Shown here in pieces: positions 1,626 through 47,525 of a stretch of DNA of 64,000 bases. The position numbers were made by a program, and so were the translations under genes. Under the pieces are notes generated by a model, which had not been told where the DNA came from, ran no database searches, and saw only the letters and a list, made by a program, of their open reading frames with translations. How positions within the stretch are numbered: the stretch's first letter is position 1; every line of letters begins with the position of its first letter. The stretch comes from a virus: the IMG/VR virus record IMGVR_UViG_3300042514_001858, positions 32,001-96,000 of that record. One strand, given 5' to 3'.

Positions 1626-2534
1626 TTCTTCCAACTGTAATAGACAAGCGATACAACATATCTCCCTGTCAGTAACAGACATCATTTTAAACAAGCTATC
1701 CGCAATTATTAGGATAGCTTGTTTTTTTATTGTGTCATCAATTTGTAGATCATAAAAATAATTTAACAAATCTTTCAAAAGAGCTTCATGATCAGAGTCG
1801 AATAATTCCTCGTTCTCAATAAGAAACTTTCTTGTATCCAGTGTCTTACCCGACTTGAGATTATTATAAATTAATTCTAATGTCTCGTTAGTATCCTTCT
1901 TTGATTCAATAGTGAGGATACCAGACTTAGAGAACTTCTCCAACTCATTGATGCATTTCCTGATATCGGGAAAATGACTTCTGATCAGATTTACCAGATT
2001 CTTCTTCTGATCGTCAGGGATCTCGATGTTTTCTCTTTTGAGAATTTCCACACATCGACGAATGACATCTTTTAAGGATGTGTGGAGAGTGAGATTTTGG
2101 CAACGAGACTGTAGAGCAGGGATAATACGGTGTTTGTAATTACCTGTGAGGATGAATCGTGTAGTGGATGAATAAGACTCCATTACGTTACGTAGAATCC
2201 CCTGTGCCTGTTTGGAGATACCATCTGCTTCATCCAGAATTACAATTTTCAATCCACCATCGAAACTCATTGTTTGGGCAAACCCAATAACTTTCTCTCG
2301 AATCGTGTCCACGCCGTTTTCATCAGAGGCATTAATATAAAGATAATCACAATTCAAAATATCTTTAGCGATGATTTTGGCAAGACTGGTCTTACCGCTT
2401 CCAGCAACACCAGTCAATAACAAATTCGGGATATCTCTACCAAAGTTTTGGATGATTGCTCTTGTCTTTTCGTCCACCATCAGATCATCTAGAGTCTGTG
2501 GTCTGAAGCGTTCCATCCATAAATCATTATTCAT
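1608..2534 (-). CDS. gp44: Clamp loader large subunit (RFC/gp44-like AAA+ ATPase)
   Basis: WMERFRPQTLDD, Walker A GVAGSGKTS, INASDENG, Walker B ILDEAD, SRC motif. Confidence 0.95.
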   Translation of the reverse strand: MNNDLWMERFRPQTLDDLMVDEKTRAIIQNFGRDIPNLLLTGVAGSGKTSLAKIIAKDILNCDYLYINASDENGVDTIREKVIGFAQTMSFDGGLKIVILDEADGISKQAQGILRNVMESYSSTTRFILTGNYKHRIIPALQSRCQNLTLHTSLKDVIRRCVEILKRENIEIPDDQKKNLVNLIRSHFPDIRKCINELEKFSKSGILTIESKKDTNETLELIYNNLKSGKTLDTRKFLIENEELFDSDHEALLKDLLNYFYDLQIDDTIKKQAILIIADSLFKMMSVTDREICCIACLLQLEELFPPK

Positions 2535-3271
2535 ATATCAATACCAATAGCATGGTTTGATCGTTTGTCAATGGTTCGGACAAGATTTGCACAGTCTAAT
2601 AGACTATCATGATCACCAATGTCGAACCAAAAACCATCAAGTTTCTCAACATTGACACCTTCTTTCTCATTCATCAAGCGAATGAGATCAACGATTTCCA
2701 GTTCTCCTCTTGCTGATGGTGTGACCTTTTTAGCCATTTCAACCACTTCATTGGAAAATACATAAAGACCAATCACAGCATCTTCTGAAATAAATTCTTT
2801 AGGTTTCTCCACAATTCGTTTGATCCAACCATTTTCATCAGTTTCCACCACACCATATGCTGATGGGTCTTTTACTTTGTAAGTGTAGATTGTATTTGAT
2901 TGGGGATGAATCGGTGAGTTGCCAATGATAATATTATCCCCAAGAATCAAACAGATTTCATCTGCATCTTTAATAAATTCTTCCCCAACAATAAAAGCAT
3001 CGACAAGACCACGAGGTTTATCCTGAATTGTATAGGATAGATTCAGACCGAATTTACTACCATCTCCCAACAAAATCTTAAATTGTTTTTGTTGTTCCTC
3101 ATCAGCATTGATAATAAGGATATCTTGATAACCCATCTCCTTCAGTGTTTGAAGGGGATAGGCGATCACTGGTTTTTTATAGATACCCAATAATTGTTTG
3201 GATGTCGTTTTTGTAATGGGGTATAAGCGAGTGGCTTTTCCTCCAGCTAAAATTAAAGCACGTTTATTCAT
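2531..3271 (-). CDS. rfbA: Glucose-1-phosphate thymidylyltransferase (RmlA/RfbA family)
   Basis: ILAGGKATRLYPIT, KQLL, QDKPRGL, LILGDN, IVEKP, PSARGELEI; start taken at MNKRALILAGG. Confidence 0.9.
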   Translation of the reverse strand: MNKRALILAGGKATRLYPITKTTSKQLLGIYKKPVIAYPLQTLKEMGYQDILIINADEEQQKQFKILLGDGSKFGLNLSYTIQDKPRGLVDAFIVGEEFIKDADEICLILGDNIIIGNSPIHPQSNTIYTYKVKDPSAYGVVETDENGWIKRIVEKPKEFISEDAVIGLYVFSNEVVEMAKKVTPSARGELEIVDLIRLMNEKEGVNVEKLDGFWFDIGDHDSLLDCANLVRTIDKRSNHAIGIDI

Positions 3272-4184
3272 AATCTTCTCCATCATTTGCGATAGCAGTT
3301 ATTCTTGCTTTCTGGTTAGCTACGATTTGTTCACAACATTCAATGATTGCTTGCTTCTCAGTTCTGATTGGAAATATTTCTTGCAATTTACTGGTATCTA
3401 ATACACAATTGGAACGATTTGCATGTGCTTTCAATTGTGATCTATCTCCCAATTTCCAATTGGAATTGTGCATACCATATGATTTCAGAATCTCACAAAT
3501 CTCCTCAGTTTTCAATGGTTCAGGATTGGTGATATTGTAAATCTCTCTACGAACCCAATAAGTATCATTATCTAAGGTGCTAACAAGGCATTGCACAAAA
3601 TCACAAAGATCGGGAATGTATGTCTTAGAATTTACAAGATTTAATAAATCATTATAATTTTTAATTTTAGTGAGATAATTTCTATATGAATTATCTTGAC
3701 CAAATGGCATTCTAATTCTCAAAACAATACCTTTCAAATCTTTTGCGAGATTTTCGTAAGCATGTTTGGATTTGGAATAAAATGAGCTATAATTCTGAAA
3801 CAATCCAAAATTGGGAGTATCTTTTTCTGACCACTCTTTGTCGTATCCATCATAAAGACAACCAGTAGAAACGTGGATATAATAGATTCCCAATGAATCA
3901 CAGGCTCTATTAATTTCCAAAGGAACAGTGGTGTTTAATTTCCAACATTCTTCCTTTTCCAATTCTGCTTGATCCACATTAGGTTTACCAGTAAATCCTG
4001 AACAATTTATTACCGTTTTAATATCATTATTGAGAATGAATTTCTTCAATACTGACATGTCATGGTAATCTAGATCGTTTCTTGATTTAATTTGGATGTC
4101 AAATGATTTAGATTGTAAATGGTTAAAAAGGTAATTACCTATGTAACCTTTTCCTAAAATTAAAATATTATTGTTCTGGATCAT
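3264..4184 (-). CDS. NAD(P)-dependent NDP-4-keto-6-deoxyglucose epimerase/reductase (RmlD-like, NRS/ER type)
   Basis: Rossmann GKGYIG, GFTGKPNVD, STGCLY, PNF...SFYSKSK (YxxxK), LRIRMP; start moved to 4184. Confidence 0.8.
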   Translation of the reverse strand: MIQNNNILILGKGYIGNYLFNHLQSKSFDIQIKSRNDLDYHDMSVLKKFILNNDIKTVINCSGFTGKPNVDQAELEKEECWKLNTTVPLEINRACDSLGIYYIHVSTGCLYDGYDKEWSEKDTPNFGLFQNYSSFYSKSKHAYENLAKDLKGIVLRIRMPFGQDNSYRNYLTKIKNYNDLLNLVNSKTYIPDLCDFVQCLVSTLDNDTYWVRREIYNITNPEPLKTEEICEILKSYGMHNSNWKLGDRSQLKAHANRSNCVLDTSKLQEIFPIRTEKQAIIECCEQIVANQKARITAIANDGEDYE

Positions 4185-4392
4185 ATTCGTTCTCGATAAA
4201 TTCTCTAATGTTGACCAGACTACAAGTATCATTCTCTTGGATGAAGTCAAGCGCACCTGCACAGAAATCTTCAGCCATTACTGAAATTTCCACATCTTCA
4301 ATCGAATCAAGAAAATCTTGAAAATCGTTAATCGATTTGATAATTTTCTCCTCGTGAGTTTCCAATTTTTTAAGTATTGTGTTTTTCTTCAT
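4168..4392 (-). CDS. Hypothetical protein
   Basis: 74-aa ORF packed between neighbours on the same strand. Confidence 0.65.
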   Translation of the reverse strand: MKKNTILKKLETHEEKIIKSINDFQDFLDSIEDVEISVMAEDFCAGALDFIQENDTCSLVNIREFIENEYDPEQ

Positions 4393-4394
4393 AA

Positions 4395-5126
4395 TTAATT
4401 ATCAAAAAATGTTATGTCAATATCAAATGATTTTTCTTCCCCATCGATAACCACTTTCGTTTGGGTTCTATCAATTTCTTTAATTTTATCAATAAATTTA
4501 GCAATATCTTGATTGATAGACAGAGGCAAGTTCTCAATTACTGAAATTCTATCTTTGACAGACAATTCAGAGAAGCCCAAAGATTTGTCACCGAATTTCA
4601 CACTCTTGACGAATTTGACAATTTCAAAGGTGAATAGATTAGTCAGATTCTTTCCAACATCTTTTTCTCCATCTTTTTTCAGAATATCAATTGCATAATT
4701 GATGACTTTATTTTCTTCAGATAATGTAGGGGTGTCCAATTCTACTGTCACTGCTCCTTCGACAATATGTTGGAGAGGAATATCAATTTTATCTAAAATT
4801 TTGATGTCTTTGATATCAATCTCTCCTTCTGATGTTTTAACGATGTCACCTAGACTTTCTTTTCTCAATTTTAAAATAACAGGGATTTTATCAACAACCA
4901 ACCAATCATTATTTCCAGTGTTTTCAATAATAATATCATTCAACATTTTTTGGAATTTCAAGACACCAACAGTTCCTTCTGTGAAAGTTGAAATAATATT
5001 TTTTTGTTGTTTGAATGACAAAGGAACACAATCAACTTTTTCACCAGTGGTGATACGATTTACTTTGAATTTTGTATTTTTTAAATCTTGGATACTTTCC
5101 AAGAAGTTCTTAACATTATTGTCCAT
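4395..5126 (-). CDS. Putative baseplate hub protein (gp26-like)
   Basis: PLSFKQQK...ILKLRKESLGD pattern resembles T4 gp26-type hub; next to tail tube genes; TAAATA-N5-ATG. Confidence 0.55.
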   Translation of the reverse strand: MDNNVKNFLESIQDLKNTKFKVNRITTGEKVDCVPLSFKQQKNIISTFTEGTVGVLKFQKMLNDIIIENTGNNDWLVVDKIPVILKLRKESLGDIVKTSEGEIDIKDIKILDKIDIPLQHIVEGAVTVELDTPTLSEENKVINYAIDILKKDGEKDVGKNLTNLFTFEIVKFVKSVKFGDKSLGFSELSVKDRISVIENLPLSINQDIAKFIDKIKEIDRTQTKVVIDGEEKSFDIDITFFDN

Positions 5127-5158
5127 GCCCGTATTTACTGCGACAAATCATTTGTCAA

Positions 5159-5860
5159 CTAAAAAAGTGGCATATTTTCCGTTGGAGCTTCACCTTTCAT
5201 TTTATCTATGTAATATTCAATATCCATGATGGTAGAATCCATTAAAATTTCACCATCAATTTTCTTTGAAAGATAATATATGATATCTCGGAAGTAATCC
5301 ATATCATAAGAATAAAACAATCCTTTAATCATTTCGTATGGTAAAGATGTTAAGAAGTTGATTTCCATGTTTTCCAGTGCAGCATTTTGTAAAATGATTT
5401 TTTTATCATTCGCGTTTACTAAAAATTGTATCATTTTATTATAGAAATCTGCTGGTAATTTTTCCAACATTTCATCTTTAACTTCATCTGATAATTCCGC
5501 AAAATTAATAATAAAATTGCCGTATTCTATTTTTTTAATAAAATTGGATACCGATAGAATATTCAATTCTTTTATAAATTTACTTGGGATATCGACTAAT
5601 ACTTTTATATTCGAATGTTCAAACCAAGTGGGTTCGGTAACAAATTCATTCAATTCCTTTATGAGATAATCTAATGATATTTTTATATTTTTCTCTTTTA
5701 TATTGAAATTGATGGTATATGAAACATACTTCTCCCAATTCTTTAAGATGTTTATGAACTTTTCATGTGTATTATTACCTTTGAATTTATTCAAATAATC
5801 CACGAAGAAATCCTCATCTTCCTCCAAACATTTTTTTATATCTTTGATTGTTATCCTCAT
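5159..5860 (-). CDS. Hypothetical protein, possibly baseplate hub assembly related
   Basis: Long ORF in the tail cluster; start 5860 (coupled to the upstream stop) or 5890. Confidence 0.55.
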   Translation of the reverse strand: MRITIKDIKKCLEEDEDFFVDYLNKFKGNNTHEKFINILKNWEKYVSYTINFNIKEKNIKISLDYLIKELNEFVTEPTWFEHSNIKVLVDIPSKFIKELNILSVSNFIKKIEYGNFIINFAELSDEVKDEMLEKLPADFYNKMIQFLVNANDKKIILQNAALENMEINFLTSLPYEMIKGLFYSYDMDYFRDIIYYLSKKIDGEILMDSTIMDIEYYIDKMKGEAPTENMPLF

Positions 5861-6468
5861 TACACAGCAATCTGTTCGTAATTCTGACAACCAAATGTCA
5901 CGGATTTCACAGGAAATTCTGTATTTTGATAGTCCATCGTAAATCCTTCAACACCAGTGGGAAATGCTTTTCTAAAGATATAACCTTTTCTCAATTCACC
6001 ACCGTTTGTGTATTGTTTCACTGTAATATCAGCTTTGAGGTTTGCACCTGCTTCGATTAATCCTTTTATAGATGTAGCAATAATCCAAGGTCTGAAGTAT
6101 TCATGTTCCAAATCTTTTCTAGTCTCTAAAAAGTTTATAGAAAAGCTACGAGACAAGAAATCTTGTCTACTGTTCAAAACATATCCTGGTAAAAATCCAC
6201 CACTATTTTCACCAATTGAACTGGAACCAAAATTAGCACCTTCGGTTGGAATTGTCACTGATTGTGCTGGTAAAATATTACCATTTTTTGTCATGGAATT
6301 AGGAGTGATCTTAGCTCTCCATTTTTCCTGTGCTAACTGTAAATACTGGTTTATGGAATCATTTGATACTCCATCAATGGATACTGACCACAATACTGGT
6401 ATAGAAAGACAGTATCTAGCGTCCCCTGAAAACGCTTGGAGGAAATCTTCAATCTGTGGGTGAGACAT
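5860..6468 (-). CDS. Tail tube-fold protein (gp19/gp54-like)
   Basis: QSVTIP...FSINFLET...FRPW...ITVKQY...AFPT...VTF pattern; adjacent to tube and sheath genes. Confidence 0.65.
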   Translation of the reverse strand: MSHPQIEDFLQAFSGDARYCLSIPVLWSVSIDGVSNDSINQYLQLAQEKWRAKITPNSMTKNGNILPAQSVTIPTEGANFGSSSIGENSGGFLPGYVLNSRQDFLSRSFSINFLETRKDLEHEYFRPWIIATSIKGLIEAGANLKADITVKQYTNGGELRKGYIFRKAFPTGVEGFTMDYQNTEFPVKSVTFGCQNYEQIAV

Positions 6469-6484
6469 GTAATTACTTAATCAC

Positions 6485-7054
6485 TTAGACCAGTCCACGA
6501 TAGAAATGATACGCGAAAGTCGCAGTGAATGTTTTAATTTCACCAGTTCCATCAGCAATTTCATAAGAAACTTCGCTGATATTTCGAAGAGAAGCACCAA
6601 TCAATTGGATGGTTCTACCAACTTGCATTTCACTACCCGATGTCACATTGGAACCTCTTTGACAAGGGATTTGAAGAACATCCAAAGTAATTACGGATTC
6701 ATATCCTGGCATACAAATATTACCAGTGGTGGTTTCGTTGTCGAATAGGACTCTACTTGCTCTTTCGAGTTTCTCTCTGATATCCAAATTTTGATCAAGA
6801 TAAAATTCTACAGACCAACCTTCAGAACCTGGATAGCTAGATTTTCCAGGAATATTGAAAGTTTGACCAGAATAATTCACCTGTTTGTTTTCAATATCTC
6901 TTCCAGGAAAAGTAGCTGTTTTAGCGTAAACCAAATCAGTCTCACCATTCAAGGAGAGTCCTGTGATGTCGATCTGTTTAACACGGAAAAGGAAGTCGCG
7001 AGCAAATTGTTTTTGCATCGCCTGATTCATAAAATTTTCGATTGTGGTCGCCAT
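6485..7054 (-). CDS. gp19: Tail tube protein
   Basis: ARDFLFRV, AKTATFPGR, VNYSGQ, WSVEF, IKTFTATFAYHFY; immediately downstream of the sheath gene. Confidence 0.8.
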   Translation of the reverse strand: MATTIENFMNQAMQKQFARDFLFRVKQIDITGLSLNGETDLVYAKTATFPGRDIENKQVNYSGQTFNIPGKSSYPGSEGWSVEFYLDQNLDIREKLERASRVLFDNETTTGNICMPGYESVITLDVLQIPCQRGSNVTSGSEMQVGRTIQLIGASLRNISEVSYEIADGTGEIKTFTATFAYHFYRGLV

Positions 7055-39804: not shown

Positions 39805-40051
39805 TAGGAATTTTACAAAGTATTGTTGAAATGTTTAATCTTTTTTGGAAATCAGACCATTTGATTGGTGTATCCATATCGACACCATCATTCTGTCTCC
39901 AACCATCAGGGTCCATCATCTGAACATCTGGCATCGTCTTGAGCCATTCGTTTGCAGATTTCTTAGCGAAGACTTTTTCCCATCCTTCAGAATATGCAGA
40001 ATTCTGAGGAGATGTTTTAATGACTTTTCCTGTAATTTCGTTAATCGCCAT
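39797..40051 (-). CDS. Hypothetical phage protein
   Basis: MAINEITGKVIKT...AYSEGWEKVF; start moved to 40051. Confidence 0.65.
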   Translation of the reverse strand: MAINEITGKVIKTSPQNSAYSEGWEKVFAKKSANEWLKTMPDVQMMDPDGWRQNDGVDMDTPIKWSDFQKRLNISTILCKIPNV

Positions 40052-40247
40052 AAATAATTTCTTTTGTTCTTGTGATAAATTCCGATCTGTCACCAATTTC
40101 ACAATTGAAACAGTAGTCCCATAAATAATCTTCAATATCAGGGTTCACCAAGTTCTTGATATTGTTGTAAATTTCTTTTTGTTGATATTCAAGAGCTTGA
40201 ATATTTGCTCTCGCATCCTCTATTTGTAATTTTGTTTCTTCGTCCAT
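40041..40247 (-). CDS. Hypothetical protein
   Basis: 68-aa ORF between the clamp gene and 40051. Confidence 0.6.
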   Translation of the reverse strand: MDEETKLQIEDARANIQALEYQQKEIYNNIKNLVNPDIEDYLWDYCFNCEIGDRSEFITRTKEIIYGD

Positions 40248-40249
40248 AA

Positions 40250-40957
40250 TTAATTCTTCAGTGAGCTAAAAATATATTCCATTTCAAAATCACCACTCTT
40301 CGTGACGATACAACCAACTCCCAACTTGGAATTGATTTTGAATACATTACCAGTCTTCGATACTTTAGACAATAATTTCAAATTGTCAATCTTTAGAATG
40401 AAAGGATTGAGTTCAAATTCAACTTCATCCCCTACAATACTCAGAGTATCACTGTTTGGAACGGTTTCGTCTCCAACTTTCCACACCAAATTACCATCTT
40501 CTGTGAAAATATATAATTTCTTGGTGTTTGTGATGGAAGATTTTTGAAGAATATTGGAAAGGAAATCAAAGTCCAACTCAAATTCGATGTTATATTCAAA
40601 ATTACGAATCTTTTCCAGAGATAACTTGGGTCTAGTGATGACTCCTTCTTCATGGAGATGATATTTGAATTTGATTTGCTTATCTTTATACTCCAAATGG
40701 TTTCCGTTCAACTTTAGCTTTACAGTATCAGATGATACCATGTCTAATGCTTTGGAAAGTTTCTTCAAAGAAGGTAGATTTAAATTCTTTTCTTCAAAAT
40801 CACCTCTTAGATATGCATGAGCATACATGGAGTTATCCTCACTAGAGGAAATCCCATGTATGCCATCATCTGTCATTTCTAGAACACATGTGTCACTTAT
40901 TTGCGACAAGCTTAACAATAGGTTCTGAAACGGTTTTCTGTTTAGATTGATTTGCAT
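40250..40957 (-). CDS. gp45: Sliding clamp (gp45/PCNA fold)
   Basis: 235 aa; two-domain alternating beta/helix pattern (LKKLSKALDMV; ILKIDNLKLL); near gp32. Confidence 0.7.
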   Translation of the reverse strand: MQINLNRKPFQNLLLSLSQISDTCVLEMTDDGIHGISSSEDNSMYAHAYLRGDFEEKNLNLPSLKKLSKALDMVSSDTVKLKLNGNHLEYKDKQIKFKYHLHEEGVITRPKLSLEKIRNFEYNIEFELDFDFLSNILQKSSITNTKKLYIFTEDGNLVWKVGDETVPNSDTLSIVGDEVEFELNPFILKIDNLKLLSKVSKTGNVFKINSKLGVGCIVTKSGDFEMEYIFSSLKN

Positions 40958-43179: not shown

Positions 43180-43460
43180 TTCTTTCTCTTTTTCTGCTCT
43201 GAATTAATGTATTTCGTGATGAACTTACTACGTGAAATAGTAGGATCATAATCTAGAAACACTTTAACAAGTTCTTGGTCAGAGTCAAGAGATAAAATGG
43301 TTTTCAAAATTGTTTTTAGCCTTTCCTCTTGGAGAGTAGTCACGAAAACATTCTGAATGGATAATTTTTTTCCTTTAAGATGATTTATAAAGGAACAATA
43401 GCATAGAAAGAGGTGATTTGTTTCCTCTTCCACAATTTCTGATGATGGATCAAAGCTCAT
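43176..43460 (-). CDS. Hypothetical protein
   Basis: 94-aa ORF with ATGA overlaps. Confidence 0.65.
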   Translation of the reverse strand: MSFDPSSEIVEEETNHLFLCYCSFINHLKGKKLSIQNVFVTTLQEERLKTILKTILSLDSDQELVKVFLDYDPTISRSKFITKYINSEQKKRKK

Positions 43461-44320
43461 AATTCTGTAAGTGTTTCGCTGAATTTCAAAAATTCTTTGG
43501 TGATTTTACCTCCTGATGCCCATTCGCCGCCACCACCGTCACCACCGTCACACAGATTAGCAGCCATTTTAGCAATGTCAACCTCCGATCCTTTACATTT
43601 TCTAAAAGAAACGAATTTTGTATCAGGGTTCATTACAATTACAGCGTCTCCTTTATAATTTTCCATAATGGAATGGCTCAATTCATTCACGGAGAACTTA
43701 GAAATCGTGGAAATGACCTTAAATCCTTCCCATTCTCCTGTGAATAGTTGAATTTGCTCCAATTCTTTTTCTAATTCCTTGAAAAAACCTTCAGCAAGCT
43801 TAACTTCTGTGGTAGTGAACCCGTCAAACCCGTTCCAGAAGCGATTTACAAAATTAATAAAGCGATTTCCACCAGATTTACGATAAAGAGCATTGAGATA
43901 CTTGGTTTCTTCGTGTTTTAGATCATATGAATTGTAATCATCGACGTATAGGAAGAATTTTTTCAAATCTTTCGTAAATTCCACCTTTTCTTTGAATTTT
44001 TTATACAACATCTTGGTGCAAGATGAACATTCTTCCTGAATCATGGTTGAATCCCATGTTTTGAAGTCTTCGGGACGGTCTGAAACGAACACCACACGAT
44101 GATCGTCAATCTTTTTGATAAGATTTTGATCTAGAACCATGCCGACTACGAAGATTTTATCATAATCTTCTGCATTTTCTTTAGCCCATGGTAGATATTG
44201 TTCTTCAAACTTACCAAAAAAACAATGACGATACTCAAAATTCTTAAATAAATTACCTAAAAGAACTGTAGAACCAATACCATCCAAATCTGAGTTGACC
44301 CAAGCAAAGATACGTTGCAT
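43457..44320 (-). CDS. DHH/DHHA1-family phosphoesterase-like protein with degenerate active-site motifs
   Basis: NSDLDGIGS motif I, VDDYNSY, VSFR...GGGGEWASG DHHA1-like end; start MQRIFAW. Confidence 0.7.
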   Translation of the reverse strand: MQRIFAWVNSDLDGIGSTVLLGNLFKNFEYRHCFFGKFEEQYLPWAKENAEDYDKIFVVGMVLDQNLIKKIDDHRVVFVSDRPEDFKTWDSTMIQEECSSCTKMLYKKFKEKVEFTKDLKKFFLYVDDYNSYDLKHEETKYLNALYRKSGGNRFINFVNRFWNGFDGFTTTEVKLAEGFFKELEKELEQIQLFTGEWEGFKVISTISKFSVNELSHSIMENYKGDAVIVMNPDTKFVSFRKCKGSEVDIAKMAANLCDGGDGGGGEWASGGKITKEFLKFSETLTEL

Positions 44321-44324
44321 GTCA

Positions 44325-44352
44325 TAATTACTCGGATTTAAAGAATTGTCAA
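44325..44352 (-). promoter_or_regulatory. TTGACA-N16-TAATTA promoter of the DHH gene, 4 nt before ATG
   Basis: Same arrangement at 45341-45368 and at 59077-59104. Confidence 0.6.
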
Positions 44353-44360
44353 TCATAATA

Positions 44361-44449
44361 ACACAACATGTCGCTCCATCCAACGGCTCAAAGTCGTCTG
44401 TTTCGTATTCAGAGTCTTACGTTCGCCGTGGATGAGCTAGACGTTCGGC
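44361..44449 (+). mobile_element. attC: Integron attC site 1 (89 bp)
   Basis: R'' ACACAAC, 5-nt spacer, L'' GCTCCATC, CAACGGC...GCCGTG, L' GATGAGC, 5-nt spacer, R' GTTCGGC; extra C in L'' and extra A give the two canonical extrahelical bases. Confidence 0.9.
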
Positions 44450-44997
44450 AAAATAATCCCCCACCCCCCTCCTCCCGACGACAAAGAGAAACAACAAACA
44501 TTATGACAGATAATACAAAGAAAGGATATTTTGATGAAAATCTCACTTTTGATGGGATACAGAAGACAATCGATGATTTAGTAACAAATTACCCAAATCA
44601 TATCGGCGTTATTACCGCAATTGGTAAGTTGGGTAGCTTAATGTCAATTTTACACGATGACAACAAAGAACAAAACCGACTAACAAAAATCCAGAATAGG
44701 CGAGTGGAGATTTTATCTTGGGTTGTCGGTGTTTGCACCTTGATTACGACATTTGCAACCATCATGAGTATCTGTAAGTGAATTACGGGCAAACCAATCC
44801 ATAATCTCTTTAACTTTTCTATCCTGTTCACGATTGAATGATTCTTGATATTCTTTTTCAGTGTCTCGTTTGTCAGCATTTGTAATAAATCTCCACATCC
44901 TAGAAAAAAATGAAGAAGCCGAACAAGACGCTCCATCCAACGGCGAAAACGTCTTTGATTGTTTCGGACTCTGTTTGCGCCGTGGATGAGCTAGACG
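44444..44997 (+). mobile_element. Complete integron gene cassette (554 bp, G|TT to G|TT)
   Basis: Begins TTCGGC, and its own attC R'' is GCCGAAC (exact complement of GTTCGGC), as expected for an IntI-integrated cassette. Confidence 0.85.
44503..44781 (+). CDS. Cassette ORF, 92 aa, with C-terminal transmembrane helix
   Basis: Canonical cassette orientation (towards attC2); ILSWVVGVCTLITTFATIMSIC hydrophobic tail. Confidence 0.6.
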   Translation: MTDNTKKGYFDENLTFDGIQKTIDDLVTNYPNHIGVITAIGKLGSLMSILHDDNKEQNRLTKIQNRRVEILSWVVGVCTLITTFATIMSICK

Positions 44998-45027
44998 TTG
45001 TGTATTATTTTTATTTTTATTTTTCAT
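44713..45027 (-). CDS. Reverse ORF starting in phage flank and reading through attC2 into the cassette
   Basis: 104 aa; strong promoter 9 nt upstream; QRLAHPRR...PLDGASCSAS is the attC bottom strand. Confidence 0.5.
   Translation of the reverse strand: MKNKNKNNTQRLAHPRRKQSPKQSKTFSPLDGASCSASSFFSRMWRFITNADKRDTEKEYQESFNREQDRKVKEIMDWFARNSLTDTHDGCKCRNQGANTDNPR
44918..45003 (+). mobile_element. attC: Integron attC site 2 (86 bp)
   Basis: R'' GCCGAAC, AAGAC, L'' GCTCCATC, CAACGGCG...CGCCGTG, L' GATGAGC, TAGAC, R' GTTGTGT. Confidence 0.9.
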
Positions 45028-45036
45028 AAGGTCTGT

Positions 45037-45064
45037 ATTGTATACTAGTTTTTAAGAAAGTCAA
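45037..45064 (-). promoter_or_regulatory. Sigma70-like promoter TTGACT-N16-TACAAT pointing into the attC array
   Basis: agtcaa 45059-64, attgta 45037-42. Confidence 0.7.
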
Positions 45065-45381
45065 CCATTTGATAATTTTTGCAATAAGTCCAATTCATCA
45101 TTGTCCATAATTTCTTCCTCATCAATCTTTTTGATAAGATTTTGATCTAGAACCATGCCGACGATAAAGATTTTATCATAATCCTCTGCGTTTTCTTTAG
45201 CCCATGGTAGATATTGCTCTTCAAACTTACCAAAAAAACAATGACGATACTCAAAATTTTTAAATATGTTCCCCAAAAGAATTGTTGATCCAATTCCATC
45301 CAAATCGCTATTGACCCATGCAAAAATTCGCTGCATGTTATAATTACCAATTTCTATAAAATTGTCAATAGGTGATTCCAT
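45061..45381 (-). pseudogene. Chimeric remnant: DHH N-terminus fused to helicase C-terminal tail
   Basis: 45122-45368 copies 44106-44352 (offset 1016); 45104-45124 is identical to 46252-46272; reading frame still open. Confidence 0.8.
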
Positions 45382-45411: not shown

Positions 45412-46203
45412 TCAAATAACTCTTGGTTCATTTTTAGATTTAATTACATAGCTACTCATAACCTTGTTATATAAATCAGGTTGAACTTTTTTCAACCTAT
45501 CAAAACCTATCATAGATTTATTATACATCAAATATGTTCTTATTTTTGAAAATGATTCTTTGCGTTCAACACATTCAGCATCGTAAATATATTTAATATT
45601 TCTCTCCAATCTTGTGAATCCTTTATCACCATCCTCATAACCAAAATTTAAATACCACATAATGTTATCAGGATTTTTTGGAGTTGCAGTGGTAAAAAAC
45701 CCAATTTTAAATTTGGTGTTTTCTTTTGGTTCTTGGACTCTGTTTTGTAGGCTATTAAATCCGCGTTGCCCCACTTGTGTCGAACTAGGATTATGTCCAA
45801 CCGAATATACGGAATATGCATATGCTGGATTGGATGAAAAATAGACTGAATTTCCTATAGCTTTGGAATCTTCACCCTTGGAAAAGGGGTCGGGATTTTT
45901 ATGTCCCCTATACACCAAAGAACCATCTTTAGGTAAAGAGTCGAACCCCTCTTTCAAATAAAATCCGTAATATTTCATCACCTGCTCCAGATATTCGTTT
46001 TCATCGTTACGAATATCTTGGGTAATACTTCCACTTCCCATAGTTTGTTTATACTGAACTGCATCATCACGATTTTTTTTATAAGATGCAACATCTTTAA
46101 TGGAAAAGCTATCATCTTTTCGATCAAACATAGTTCCAAAAGGTCTATTACCTTCCCTTTTTTTTGTGACAAATTCTTCAAAAAATATTTTAAACGATAC
46201 CAT
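45412..46203 (-). CDS. Putative ADP-ribosyltransferase-fold protein
   Basis: LVYRG ... VYFSSNPAYA ... YDAE (R-S-E-like); TAAATA-N5-ATG; MVSFKIFFEE N-terminus. Confidence 0.45.
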   Translation of the reverse strand: MVSFKIFFEEFVTKKREGNRPFGTMFDRKDDSFSIKDVASYKKNRDDAVQYKQTMGSGSITQDIRNDENEYLEQVMKYYGFYLKEGFDSLPKDGSLVYRGHKNPDPFSKGEDSKAIGNSVYFSSNPAYAYSVYSVGHNPSSTQVGQRGFNSLQNRVQEPKENTKFKIGFFTTATPKNPDNIMWYLNFGYEDGDKGFTRLERNIKYIYDAECVERKESFSKIRTYLMYNKSMIGFDRLKKVQPDLYNKVMSSYVIKSKNEPRVI

Positions 46204-46211
46204 TCCATTAT

Positions 46212-47525
46212 TTAATCACTCAACTTTTCAAGAAGGCTAAGTTCATTATTATCCATAATTTCTTCCTCATCATCTGCCTGATATATAGAAAGTGTGGAAT
46301 AATTAATTCTCATGGCTTGTGTCATTCCTCTCGGTCCGAACCTATTTTTCATCATTCCCAGACGAATTACTGCCATTTCTTGGTCTTCTTCGTTCTGGAA
46401 GATAGATACAATCACATCAGCAGTCATAACAATAGCCAAAGACTCAGCAACACCTGACATATCAGGGTTATTTTGTCCAACAGCAGATCTATTCAACTGA
46501 CAAGCTGAAATAATAGGGCATTTATAGACATAAGACAATGCTCTGACCTGTTCGCAGATGTTTTTACCCTTTTCATAGCTGTTACTACCAGCAGCAGTCA
46601 TCAAAGTAAGGTAATCAAGCACAATAGCATCAATTCTGATACCAGAATCTTTCATTTTCTTGATAAAAGCTCCCAATTGCTTAGGTGTAATCGTAGATGG
46701 GGGGAATTCTTTGATATAAATGCGCCCATCAGTGTTCTTATGCTCTTGTTCAAGGGCATGTCGAAGCGTTGGGACACAATTACGGAACTCCTTCATGGGA
46801 ATCTTCGTCACATTCGAAGCAATTCTCTTAGCATAGAGCGTTTCCGACATCTCCAGAGTCACAACAAGCACATGTTTACCTTGGGATGCCATGTTTGCCG
46901 CCACATTACCAAGGAAAATGCTCTTTCCAATGTTAGATTGACCCGCAAACACATACAATGCCTTACCAGCTTCTTGAAATCCACCGTCCAATGCCTCATC
47001 TAACCATGCCCATTTGGAAGAAATAGTGGTTTCATCACTCAAAATGTCATCAATGACCTTTTCAACATCACCATAAAGCTCAATTCCTTTATCAACATTG
47101 AGATTGATACCAGCAATCTTCTCAAATTTCTCCACGATCTTGGCGGTATCGGCTTCTCCTTCCGATATTTCTTCTGCTGACTCCAAAATGGAGTGATACA
47201 TGCCCCGTTCCTTGAGGAATCTTTCTGTATTCTCATACAATTCATCCTGATTGTGATTGGAATCGATCTCTTTGAATGATTCAATTAACTTTTTGAAGTT
47301 GGTTTTGAGTTCATCTGTCGTGAGATATGTCTTCACCTCTGTGAATGTGGGAAGAGATTGTCGTTTCTCGTAGAAATCTGCAACAATCTCAAAATATTTC
47401 GCAATATTTTTATCCGTGAAATACTTGGGTTGGACGTAATCAGCAATGGATGCCAGATAAGCACCATTCGTGATCGCGTTCTTCACAAGAACCTTTTCAA
47501 AATAATCAAAATCTATTTCAGACAT
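46212..47525 (-). CDS. gp41: Replicative DnaB-type helicase
   Basis: AGQSNIGKS, VTLEMSE, IKEFP, VLDYL, ACQLNR, AES...TAD, KNRFG. Confidence 0.95.
   Translation of the reverse strand: MSEIDFDYFEKVLVKNAITNGAYLASIADYVQPKYFTDKNIAKYFEIVADFYEKRQSLPTFTEVKTYLTTDELKTNFKKLIESFKEIDSNHNQDELYENTERFLKERGMYHSILESAEEISEGEADTAKIVEKFEKIAGINLNVDKGIELYGDVEKVIDDILSDETTISSKWAWLDEALDGGFQEAGKALYVFAGQSNIGKSIFLGNVAANMASQGKHVLVVTLEMSETLYAKRIASNVTKIPMKEFRNCVPTLRHALEQEHKNTDGRIYIKEFPPSTITPKQLGAFIKKMKDSGIRIDAIVLDYLTLMTAAGSNSYEKGKNICEQVRALSYVYKCPIISACQLNRSAVGQNNPDMSGVAESLAIVMTADVIVSIFQNEEDQEMAVIRLGMMKNRFGPRGMTQAMRINYSTLSIYQADDEEEIMDNNELSLLEKLSD

Follow-up and report, generated by a model that had tools for sequence, protein, structure and literature searches.

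The window analysed here, 64,000 nucleotides long, covers positions 32001-96000 of the IMG/VR virus record IMGVR_UViG_3300042514_001858 (154 kb; G000 below). It carries two integron recombination sites, attC1 and attC2, on either side of a 554-bp gene cassette in the interval between the genes for a replicative helicase and a DHH-family phosphoesterase. We read this locus as a two-site cluster of attC sites lacking an integrase (CALIN) in a lytic T4-type myovirus, the cassette being exchanged in trans by the integron integrase (IntI) of the infected host, and we give this reading a probability of about 0.8. The host integrase would act on the folded bottom strand of attC and would cut at G|TT. 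A first-pass annotation, made from the letters of the window, had proposed a cassette inserted into a solo attC landing site; its core, namely true attC sites and a true cassette in an integrase-less T4-type myovirus, is supported, while the docking step at this locus is a proposal.

Identity of the two repeats

The distal site, attC1 (44361..44449, plus strand), has no cassette body of its own and lies as a putative docking site by the DHH start codon, and attC2 (44918..45003, plus strand) is the cassette's own attC; both were delimited by sequence and by covariance models. The attC anatomy described in the first pass was recovered base for base. Their outer boxes stand in swapped register, R'' and R' reading ACACAAC...GTTCGGC in attC1 and GCCGAAC...GTTGTGT in attC2. 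At both sites R'' ends in AAC and R' starts with GTT in inverse orientation, with one departure each from the loose consensus RYYYAAC/GTTRRRY. The two sites have exact common arms of 15 nt and 22 nt; the loops show no relationship to each other, and one is 3 nt longer than the other. The left arm of each has two extra bases, C and A, relative to the right arm; the stem comprises 13 bp with these two bases bulged on the left, the family alignment has the same bulge columns, and the 5-nt spacers are unpaired. The extra C and A and the unrelated loops, both remarked on earlier, held when the sequence was checked. In attC-aadA7 the second extrahelical base lies at the spacer edge, whereas the second bulge of the phage sites lies within the L stem. 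In the window the right arm has no copies beyond these two, where shuffled sequence gave an expectation of 0, and across the 154-kb genome neither the arms nor the site recur outside this pair.

Single-strand folding gave the expected bulged hairpin on both strands, with modest energy z-scores (-1.2 to -2.6). Because the scores are modest, the fold alone is not convincing, and the case for attC is carried by comparative evidence. These scores, together with one weak terminator-like match overlapping attC1, could also fit chance inverted repeats or intrinsic terminators that were locally duplicated in tandem. We consider this scarcely credible, given that the arms are exact while the loops are unrelated, that covariation extends across a large family with model E-values to 1e-12, and that the two genes between the sites recur as a conserved unit in other arrays.

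Compensatory changes were found at 12 of the 14 stem pairs among 12 sites from other contigs; the attC structure is evidently kept by covariation while sequence and loop vary. A covariance model built from these 12 sites, with the window excluded (R1), matched attC2 at 72.3 bits (E = 2.6e-13) and attC1 at 66.3 bits (E = 4.9e-12) when run on the 154-kb record. A second model (R2), built from bacterial contigs only, using 19 array sites beside IntI genes of Verrucomicrobiota, matched attC2 at 63.7 bits (E = 2.7e-12) and attC1 at 47.7 bits (E = 1.1e-8). Both family-specific models aligned with both sites over their full length and matched nothing else in the 154 kb. Among 80 IntI loci, strong R1 matches lay beside Verrucomicrobial integrases only. 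Bacterial arrays with the same arms, which had also been proposed as a check, exist as well: two attC sites beside IntI genes in Verrucomicrobiota metagenome-assembled genomes (MAGs; L063 and L058) have arms identical to those of the phage sites. On account of the covariation, the R1 and R2 matches, the restriction of R1 matches to Verrucomicrobial IntI loci and the identical arms in L063 and L058, both repeats are identified from sequence comparison as genuine attC sites of a Verrucomicrobiota-type family that is used by sedentary chromosomal integrons.

When viral contigs were scanned for the exact pattern, the attC pair turned up in four near-identical phage contigs and a single site in L007, a 57-kb record of the provirus class with 65% G+C. 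The L007 match is one in a row of sites within a lower-G+C island, a seven-site attC array at ~2945-7004 (minus strand; 44-53% G+C) in which the first six bases of each cassette complement its own R'', as in a textbook array. A tyrosine recombinase is absent from the 57-kb record. This array is a bacterial CALIN, possibly inside or beside a prophage.

No tyrosine recombinase was found by profile search (PF00589) in the 154-kb record, nor any PF00589 recombinase in five relatives, two of which are 100% complete with terminal repeats. The lack of an integrase, first reported for the window, extends in this way to the whole record and to two complete relatives. The first pass had left two sources for IntI, the host or another part of the phage genome; the search of the 154-kb record argues against the latter and the host stands as the probable source. 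Because the phage and its relatives are without a tyrosine recombinase, the integrase must act in trans from a host. With no adjacent integrase the locus is not a complete integron, comprising intI, attI, the cassette promoter Pc and an array; because it has no integrase gene, it is classed as a two-site CALIN.

The cassette and its counterparts in other arrays

Cutting at G|TT in both sites, after the G at 44443 and the G at 44997, delimits a cassette of 554 bp (44444..44997, plus strand) that runs from the TT of the attC1 R' to the G of the attC2 R'. The swapped boxes and the 554-bp unit derived from them in the first pass hold in the sequence, and the boundaries are fixed by the register of the R boxes and by homologous cassettes in other arrays (L053, at ~80% nucleotide identity, and L048/L049). 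On the top strand the cassette encodes a 92-aa protein (44503..44781, plus strand), assigned from homologues with 68-84% identity and from substitutions that fall mainly at the third codon position (6/2/12 and 15/11/30 for the three positions). A bottom-strand open reading frame (ORF) of 104 aa (44713..45027, minus strand) starts 24 nt outside the attC2 R' and runs through attC2; it was likewise assigned from codon-position counts, with a third-position excess in 44782-44917 (5/5/16 and 10/10/19), and from homologues with 49-67% identity, the last ~60 residues being conserved. The two genes are convergent and overlap by 69 nt, and the bottom-strand layout recurs in L020, L053 and L049. Because of the codon-position counts, both cassette genes (the minus-strand one within 44782-44917) are judged to evolve as coding sequence. 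Since the bottom frame is open through attC2, we also considered attC as part of a coding repeat, but gave this up as the chief reading because codon positions show no bias within the attC part and a stop codon interrupts the frame in attC1.

Neither cassette protein has a match in Pfam or PHROG. In a protein atlas, the 92-aa protein fell only into unnamed clusters, some of them Verrucomicrobial, and the 104-aa protein into none. The 92-aa protein is predicted to be all-helical with a hydrophobic C-terminal segment, and its AlphaFold model (predicted local distance difference test score, pLDDT, 56) was too poor for a structure search. The 5' untranslated part of the cassette contains an unusual C-rich tract (44459-44478); the homologous cassettes of L053 and L049 are without it, and a similar tract accompanies promoter motifs at the end of the record (G000, ~154066-154088).

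A 72% homologue of the 92-aa protein, P0004, is encoded in L048, a 122-kb bacterial contig of ~62% G+C, where it forms the first unit after a divergently transcribed IntI gene and the first cassette after attI. The L048 integrase is a 412-aa tyrosine recombinase that scores 319 bits against the NCBIfam model TIGR02249 'integron integrase' (cut-off, 265), and its nearest relatives come from Akkermansiaceae, Luteolibacter and other Verrucomicrobiota MAGs. P0004 is also present, letter for letter, in the low-G+C contigs L049-L052, which are related to this phage by several common genes (e.g., ThyX, 72% identity). In L049 it belongs to an array of nine same-strand attC sites and eight cassettes (1982-6450, 4.5 kb) beside ThyX and YopX genes. 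Between L048 and L049/L052 the cassette is ~99.5% identical from the TT after the preceding site's G to the G of its own R', and identity is nil outside these points on both sides. Compared with L049, L051 has one extra ~285-bp cassette at the G|TT of an attC, while L052 has three cassettes missing and one replaced; the L052 change may have come about by homologous recombination, as the two attC sites concerned are 96% identical. The swap of R boxes had been named in the first pass as the signature of IntI insertion, and exchange at G|TT is borne out by the identity breaks between L048 and L049, by the extra cassette of L051 and by the comparison of L043 with L044 described below. Collectively, the sequence comparisons indicate a passage of such cassettes between phages of this group and the chromosomal integrons of Verrucomicrobiota.

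Further attC sites, between one and three in number, are present elsewhere in the genomes of other relatives. Matches to the attC models in the large relatives lie at 170153-171205 in G005 (three sites), at 89980-90525 in G006 (two) and at 145116-145204 in G002 (one weak site), and because of these further positions cassette docking appears to be scattered over the genomes of this phage lineage.

Proposed docking modules and the route to the helicase/DHH junction

A second position, here termed locus 2, follows a 235-aa gene, and its attC-free state corresponds to window 40044-40250 (~200 bp). A solo attC occupies this locus in L044, L045 and L139-L141; its outer boxes are the window's complementary pair, and it is preceded by the same promoter and start codon as in the window. 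In L043 the same attC holds a cassette inserted exactly at the crossover point, with R boxes swapped as in the window, so that locus 2 is found both empty and loaded. According to the proposed mechanism, the outer half-sites of the window (attC1 R'' and attC2 R') would make up one self-complementary attC that remains after excision, and the solo docking sites of the sister phages look like these combined half-sites. Because L044 and L141 are solo and L043 is loaded, the idea of docking at a solo attC appears supported in principle; of the docking site proposed in the first pass, the contrast of solo and loaded states at G|TT stands for locus 2 and the solo allele is missing from the helicase/DHH locus. 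The insert of L043, L044 and L020 at locus 2 measures 1.4 kb and begins with a promoter and attC module.

At the helicase/DHH junction itself, in most relatives the helicase gene ends where the DHH gene starts, or overlaps it, and attC is absent; the interval holds other inserts in some relatives, and the identical loaded block is confined to ~99%-identical contigs. The empty allele that the first-pass annotation expected in this interval was not found among the relatives compared, and the predicted empty junction, in which the attC1 loop runs into attC2 R', gave no match when viral contigs were scanned for it as an exact pattern. The same scan of metagenome contigs was also negative, which says little, as attC2 itself is absent there; because of this second blank, the scanned metagenome collection apparently does not contain the phage. 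The insert extends from the promoter element beyond attC2 through attC1 and is flanked by a 5-bp direct repeat, GTCAA. The left copy (44348..44352, plus strand) is native DHH sequence, a motif conserved in relatives without the insert, and the right copy (45060..45064, plus strand), placed by sequence and by comparison with relatives, overlaps the stop codon of the helicase-tail frame. The GTCAA bounds imply that the docking module was placed, at least in the first step, by recombination other than canonical IntI action. We rejected a canonical insertion in which one cassette enters a secondary site, since only one attC would result. Because the relatives carry either the loaded block or no attC, the block may have arrived at this locus already loaded.

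A ready-made segment of attC1, cassette, attC2 and promoter could thus have been captured from another phage array, or from a two-cassette circle, and joined by microhomology or homologous recombination, with true attC sites as its passengers. The absence of attC from the junction in most relatives and the native GTCAA repeat on both flanks are in keeping with such a capture, as is the promoter element beyond attC2, which travels with attC in three contexts (the window, L020 and L053). The L044 unit is bounded by a duplicated promoter element, typical of homology-driven shuffling, the window is itself a recombinant of two phage types with the join 60 nt away, and integration of this kind is common in the hyperplastic regions of T4-type phages. 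Chance explains poorly, however, why the outer R boxes should be exactly complementary: in the L049 array, the first six bases match in 1 of 7 pairs two cassettes apart. A two-cassette circle would account for this complementarity. At most 7 nt separate the insert edge from the outer end of attC1, a closeness not to be expected of a random fragment, and IntI-type events are documented in sister phages. We regard capture of the loaded block as a possible but somewhat doubtful origin, and sequential docking of the cassette at the window's locus as an evenly balanced proposition.

Several observations weigh against IntI-mediated exchange at a Verrucomicrobial attC in this phage. Among the relatives there is no solo attC at the helicase/DHH locus, and the insert ends at a native direct repeat and not at G|TT. 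The R''-proximal spacer of attC1 deviates from the family consensus, and the score of this site with the bacterial-only model is lower (47.7 bits). The sites used for model building are partly similar in sequence to the query, which means that R1 and R2 are not fully independent tests. The phage has ~35% G+C compared with ~62% in the integron-bearing bacteria, and a Verrucomicrobial host is only a candidate. We infer the action of IntI on this phage at the helicase/DHH locus, the host that supplies it, and the use made of the promoter and of the ORF reading through attC2.

This promoter, P1 (45037..45064, minus strand), was located by consensus scan upstream of the bottom-strand ORF and belongs to a phage-native class (AAAAACTAG, 2 nt, TACAAT). 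The AAAAACTAG motif lies at 45045-45052 of the window, and the genome has ~18 copies of the class, mostly in the first 18 kb of G000. In the class as a whole, AAAAACTAG is followed after 2 nt by a TACAAT-like hexamer and then, 6-9 nt downstream, by ATG; in the relatives at locus 2, the AAAAACTAG motif takes in the stop codon with which the upstream gene ends. A TTGAC by P1 was considered as a shared -35 element of the mobile unit and rejected, the conserved part of the class being AAAAACTAG. The hexamer TTGACA at 44352-44347 (minus strand), 8 nt from attC1 and taken in the first pass for the -35 element of the DHH gene, turned out to lie inside the DHH coding sequence, as a conserved N-terminal coding motif in relatives.

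The ATG at 45027, after P1, opens the 104-aa frame through attC2 into the cassette. The same combination of promoter, start codon and read-through beside attC is found in L020, L043, L044 and L053, and in the L049 array a functionally similar element starts most cassettes. ATG-initiated ORFs run through the whole attC at 13 of 21 phage-borne sites versus 4 of 30 bacterial ones (Fisher p = 6e-4), the phage sites being partly related to one another, which is a further point on the opposing side. The bottom strand of a docked cassette would be transcribed with the neighbouring phage genes and its ORF translated through attC. We infer that the phage would express the bottom-strand cassette gene, where a bacterial integron would express the top-strand gene from Pc. 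The cassette shared with L048 sits at the newest (attI-proximal) position of that integron, has ~41% G+C in a ~62% G+C genome and has kept a phage-type leader. It is a tentative suggestion that the lineage has domesticated attC sites as promoter-coupled docking modules, in which a docked cassette would at once be transcribed and translated from its bottom strand, and that these phages may be net donors of low-G+C cassettes to Verrucomicrobial integrons.

A promoter beside a hairpin also recalls the PeSL (promoter-early stem-loop) elements of T4-type phages, in which an early-type promoter and a stem-loop flank small ORFans (Arbiol et al. 2010, PMC2839356; Comeau et al. 2014, PMC4122927). Further likenesses are the location in plastic T4-type regions, the predicted mini-circles and the shuffling between phages. 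The locus might on these grounds be a regulatory cassette of promoter and stem-loop terminator, shuffled by homologous recombination and with no link to integrons: a sigma-70-like phage promoter lies beside attC2, PeSL elements flank ORFans and form mini-circles in T4-type phages (PMC2839356, PMC4122927), and the 22 identical bases in both copies could support homologous exchange. However, the stem-loops of PeSL elements are short G/C tracts in or by the promoter (PMC2839356) and not 60-nt bulged hairpins with AAC/GTT boxes, and attC1 has no promoter. The same sites, some with identical arms, fill bacterial arrays beside integron integrase genes, and the exchange points lie at G|TT and not in the longest stretch of homology. 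PeSL exchange is homologous, with no site-specific enzyme and a short terminator, whereas the phage locus has full attC sites and exchange at G|TT and so falls outside the definition of a PeSL. We consider this explanation very improbable.

The phage and its place among known systems

Returning to the phage that carries this CALIN, the 154-kb record has ~35% G+C and an estimated completeness of 75%. By Pfam and PHROG the window encodes a T4-type set of tail sheath, baseplate wedge protein and large terminase, along with the replication and repair genes for a family-B DNA polymerase, a primase, a DnaB-type helicase, an SbcC-like nuclease and a UvsW-like helicase. Because of this gene set (tail sheath, terminase, family-B polymerase, DnaB-type helicase and others), the phage is a T4-type myovirus, in agreement with the T4-like assignment made from the window alone; it is called lytic and comes from freshwater. 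A megablast search of INPHARED phage records with the locus gave no match.

The genes flanking the cassette block all lie on the minus strand, in the transcriptional order helicase, 263-aa gene, 106-aa ORF, cassette block, DHH gene. The upstream neighbour is a DnaB-like replicative helicase of the gp41 type (46212..47525, minus strand; Pfam DnaB_C and phrog_19). It is followed by a 263-aa gene (45412..46203, minus strand), identified as an open reading frame between the helicase and the chimeric ORF and without a match in Pfam or PHROG; among the relatives it occurs only in L020 and L021 (98% identity), making it a further variable insert at the helicase/DHH junction. The 106-aa ORF (45061..45381, minus strand) is, by comparison with relatives, a chimera in which residues 1-92 duplicate the DHH N-terminus and the final 20 residues duplicate the C-terminal acidic tail of the helicase. 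The window is a recombinant with an L020-type phage on the left (helicase, 263-aa gene and DHH start) and an L008-type phage on the right (helicase tail, cassette block and DHH gene), joined by an illegitimate in-frame crossover near 45119, the position at which L020-type homology stops. The DHH-family phosphoesterase gene (43457..44356, minus strand; Pfam DHH and phrog_26954) had its first codons replaced through the insertion, and relative to its counterparts in relatives it has a new ATG (44356-44354) 4 nt from attC1.

Clusters of attC sites without an integrase have been described in virulent phages, where they are recombinable by the bacterial IntI1, and phages have been proposed as cassette vectors (Qi et al. 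2023, PMC9892861). Since such clusters were already published in 2023 (PMC9892861), the present locus is less new than the first-pass annotation had assumed. Like the phages of that study (Qi et al. 2023, PMC9892861), the present one is lytic, has no intI and carries at least two attC sites with cassettes. A term search of the text found no T4-like phage and no Verrucomicrobiota named (PMC9892861). Three further features were likewise not found in PMC9892861: a pair of solo and loaded alleles, a cassette occurring also in a bacterial integron with identity ending exactly at G|TT, and a module of promoter and start codon outside R'. Insertions at attG sites and single attC sites lacking an integrase (SALINs), described by Loot et al. 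(bioRxiv 10.1101/2022.09.11.507474), also involve IntI in trans and local promoters away from the integron platform. After insertion at attG a single attC is present and ordinary DNA is joined at G|TT, whereas the phage locus has two complete attC sites and outer junctions that are not G|TT.

The attC family, the anatomy of the cassettes and one cassette family link the locus to the sedentary chromosomal integrons of Verrucomicrobiota (L048 and the Akkermansiaceae and Luteolibacter MAG loci L058, L060, L063 and L076). Those integrons have a TIGR02249 IntI, attI and attC arrays, whereas the phage has no intI, attI or Pc and two sites only. Bacterial cassettes mostly carry top-strand ORFs that start just after R', whereas the phage would read the bottom strand from its predicted promoter. 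In the literature compared, we found no description of an empty and loaded pair in sister phages, of a cassette common to a lytic-type phage and a chromosomal integron with G|TT breaks, or of a docking module with promoter, start codon and bottom-strand expression; the last, with its ORF read through attC, is apparently new.

Integrons are usually seen as bacterial devices, with cassettes carried by plasmids and transposons, and attC clusters in lytic phages had so far been demonstrated by one paper. The locus and its relatives provide evidence, at the sequence level, of cassette traffic between a phage array and the attI end of a bacterial integron, and the expression layout, with promoter and start codon outside attC and a bottom-strand gene, suggests adaptation to phages. 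If this is true, lytic phages would be both users and suppliers of integron cassettes in Verrucomicrobiota, an environmental phylum whose integrons have barely been studied, and the attC type would offer a new marker for linking uncultured phages to hosts. Should the docking modules indeed be domesticated, they would constitute an integrase-less integron platform on the phage side, and phages could be a source of new cassettes, which would bear on the unsolved question of cassette origin.

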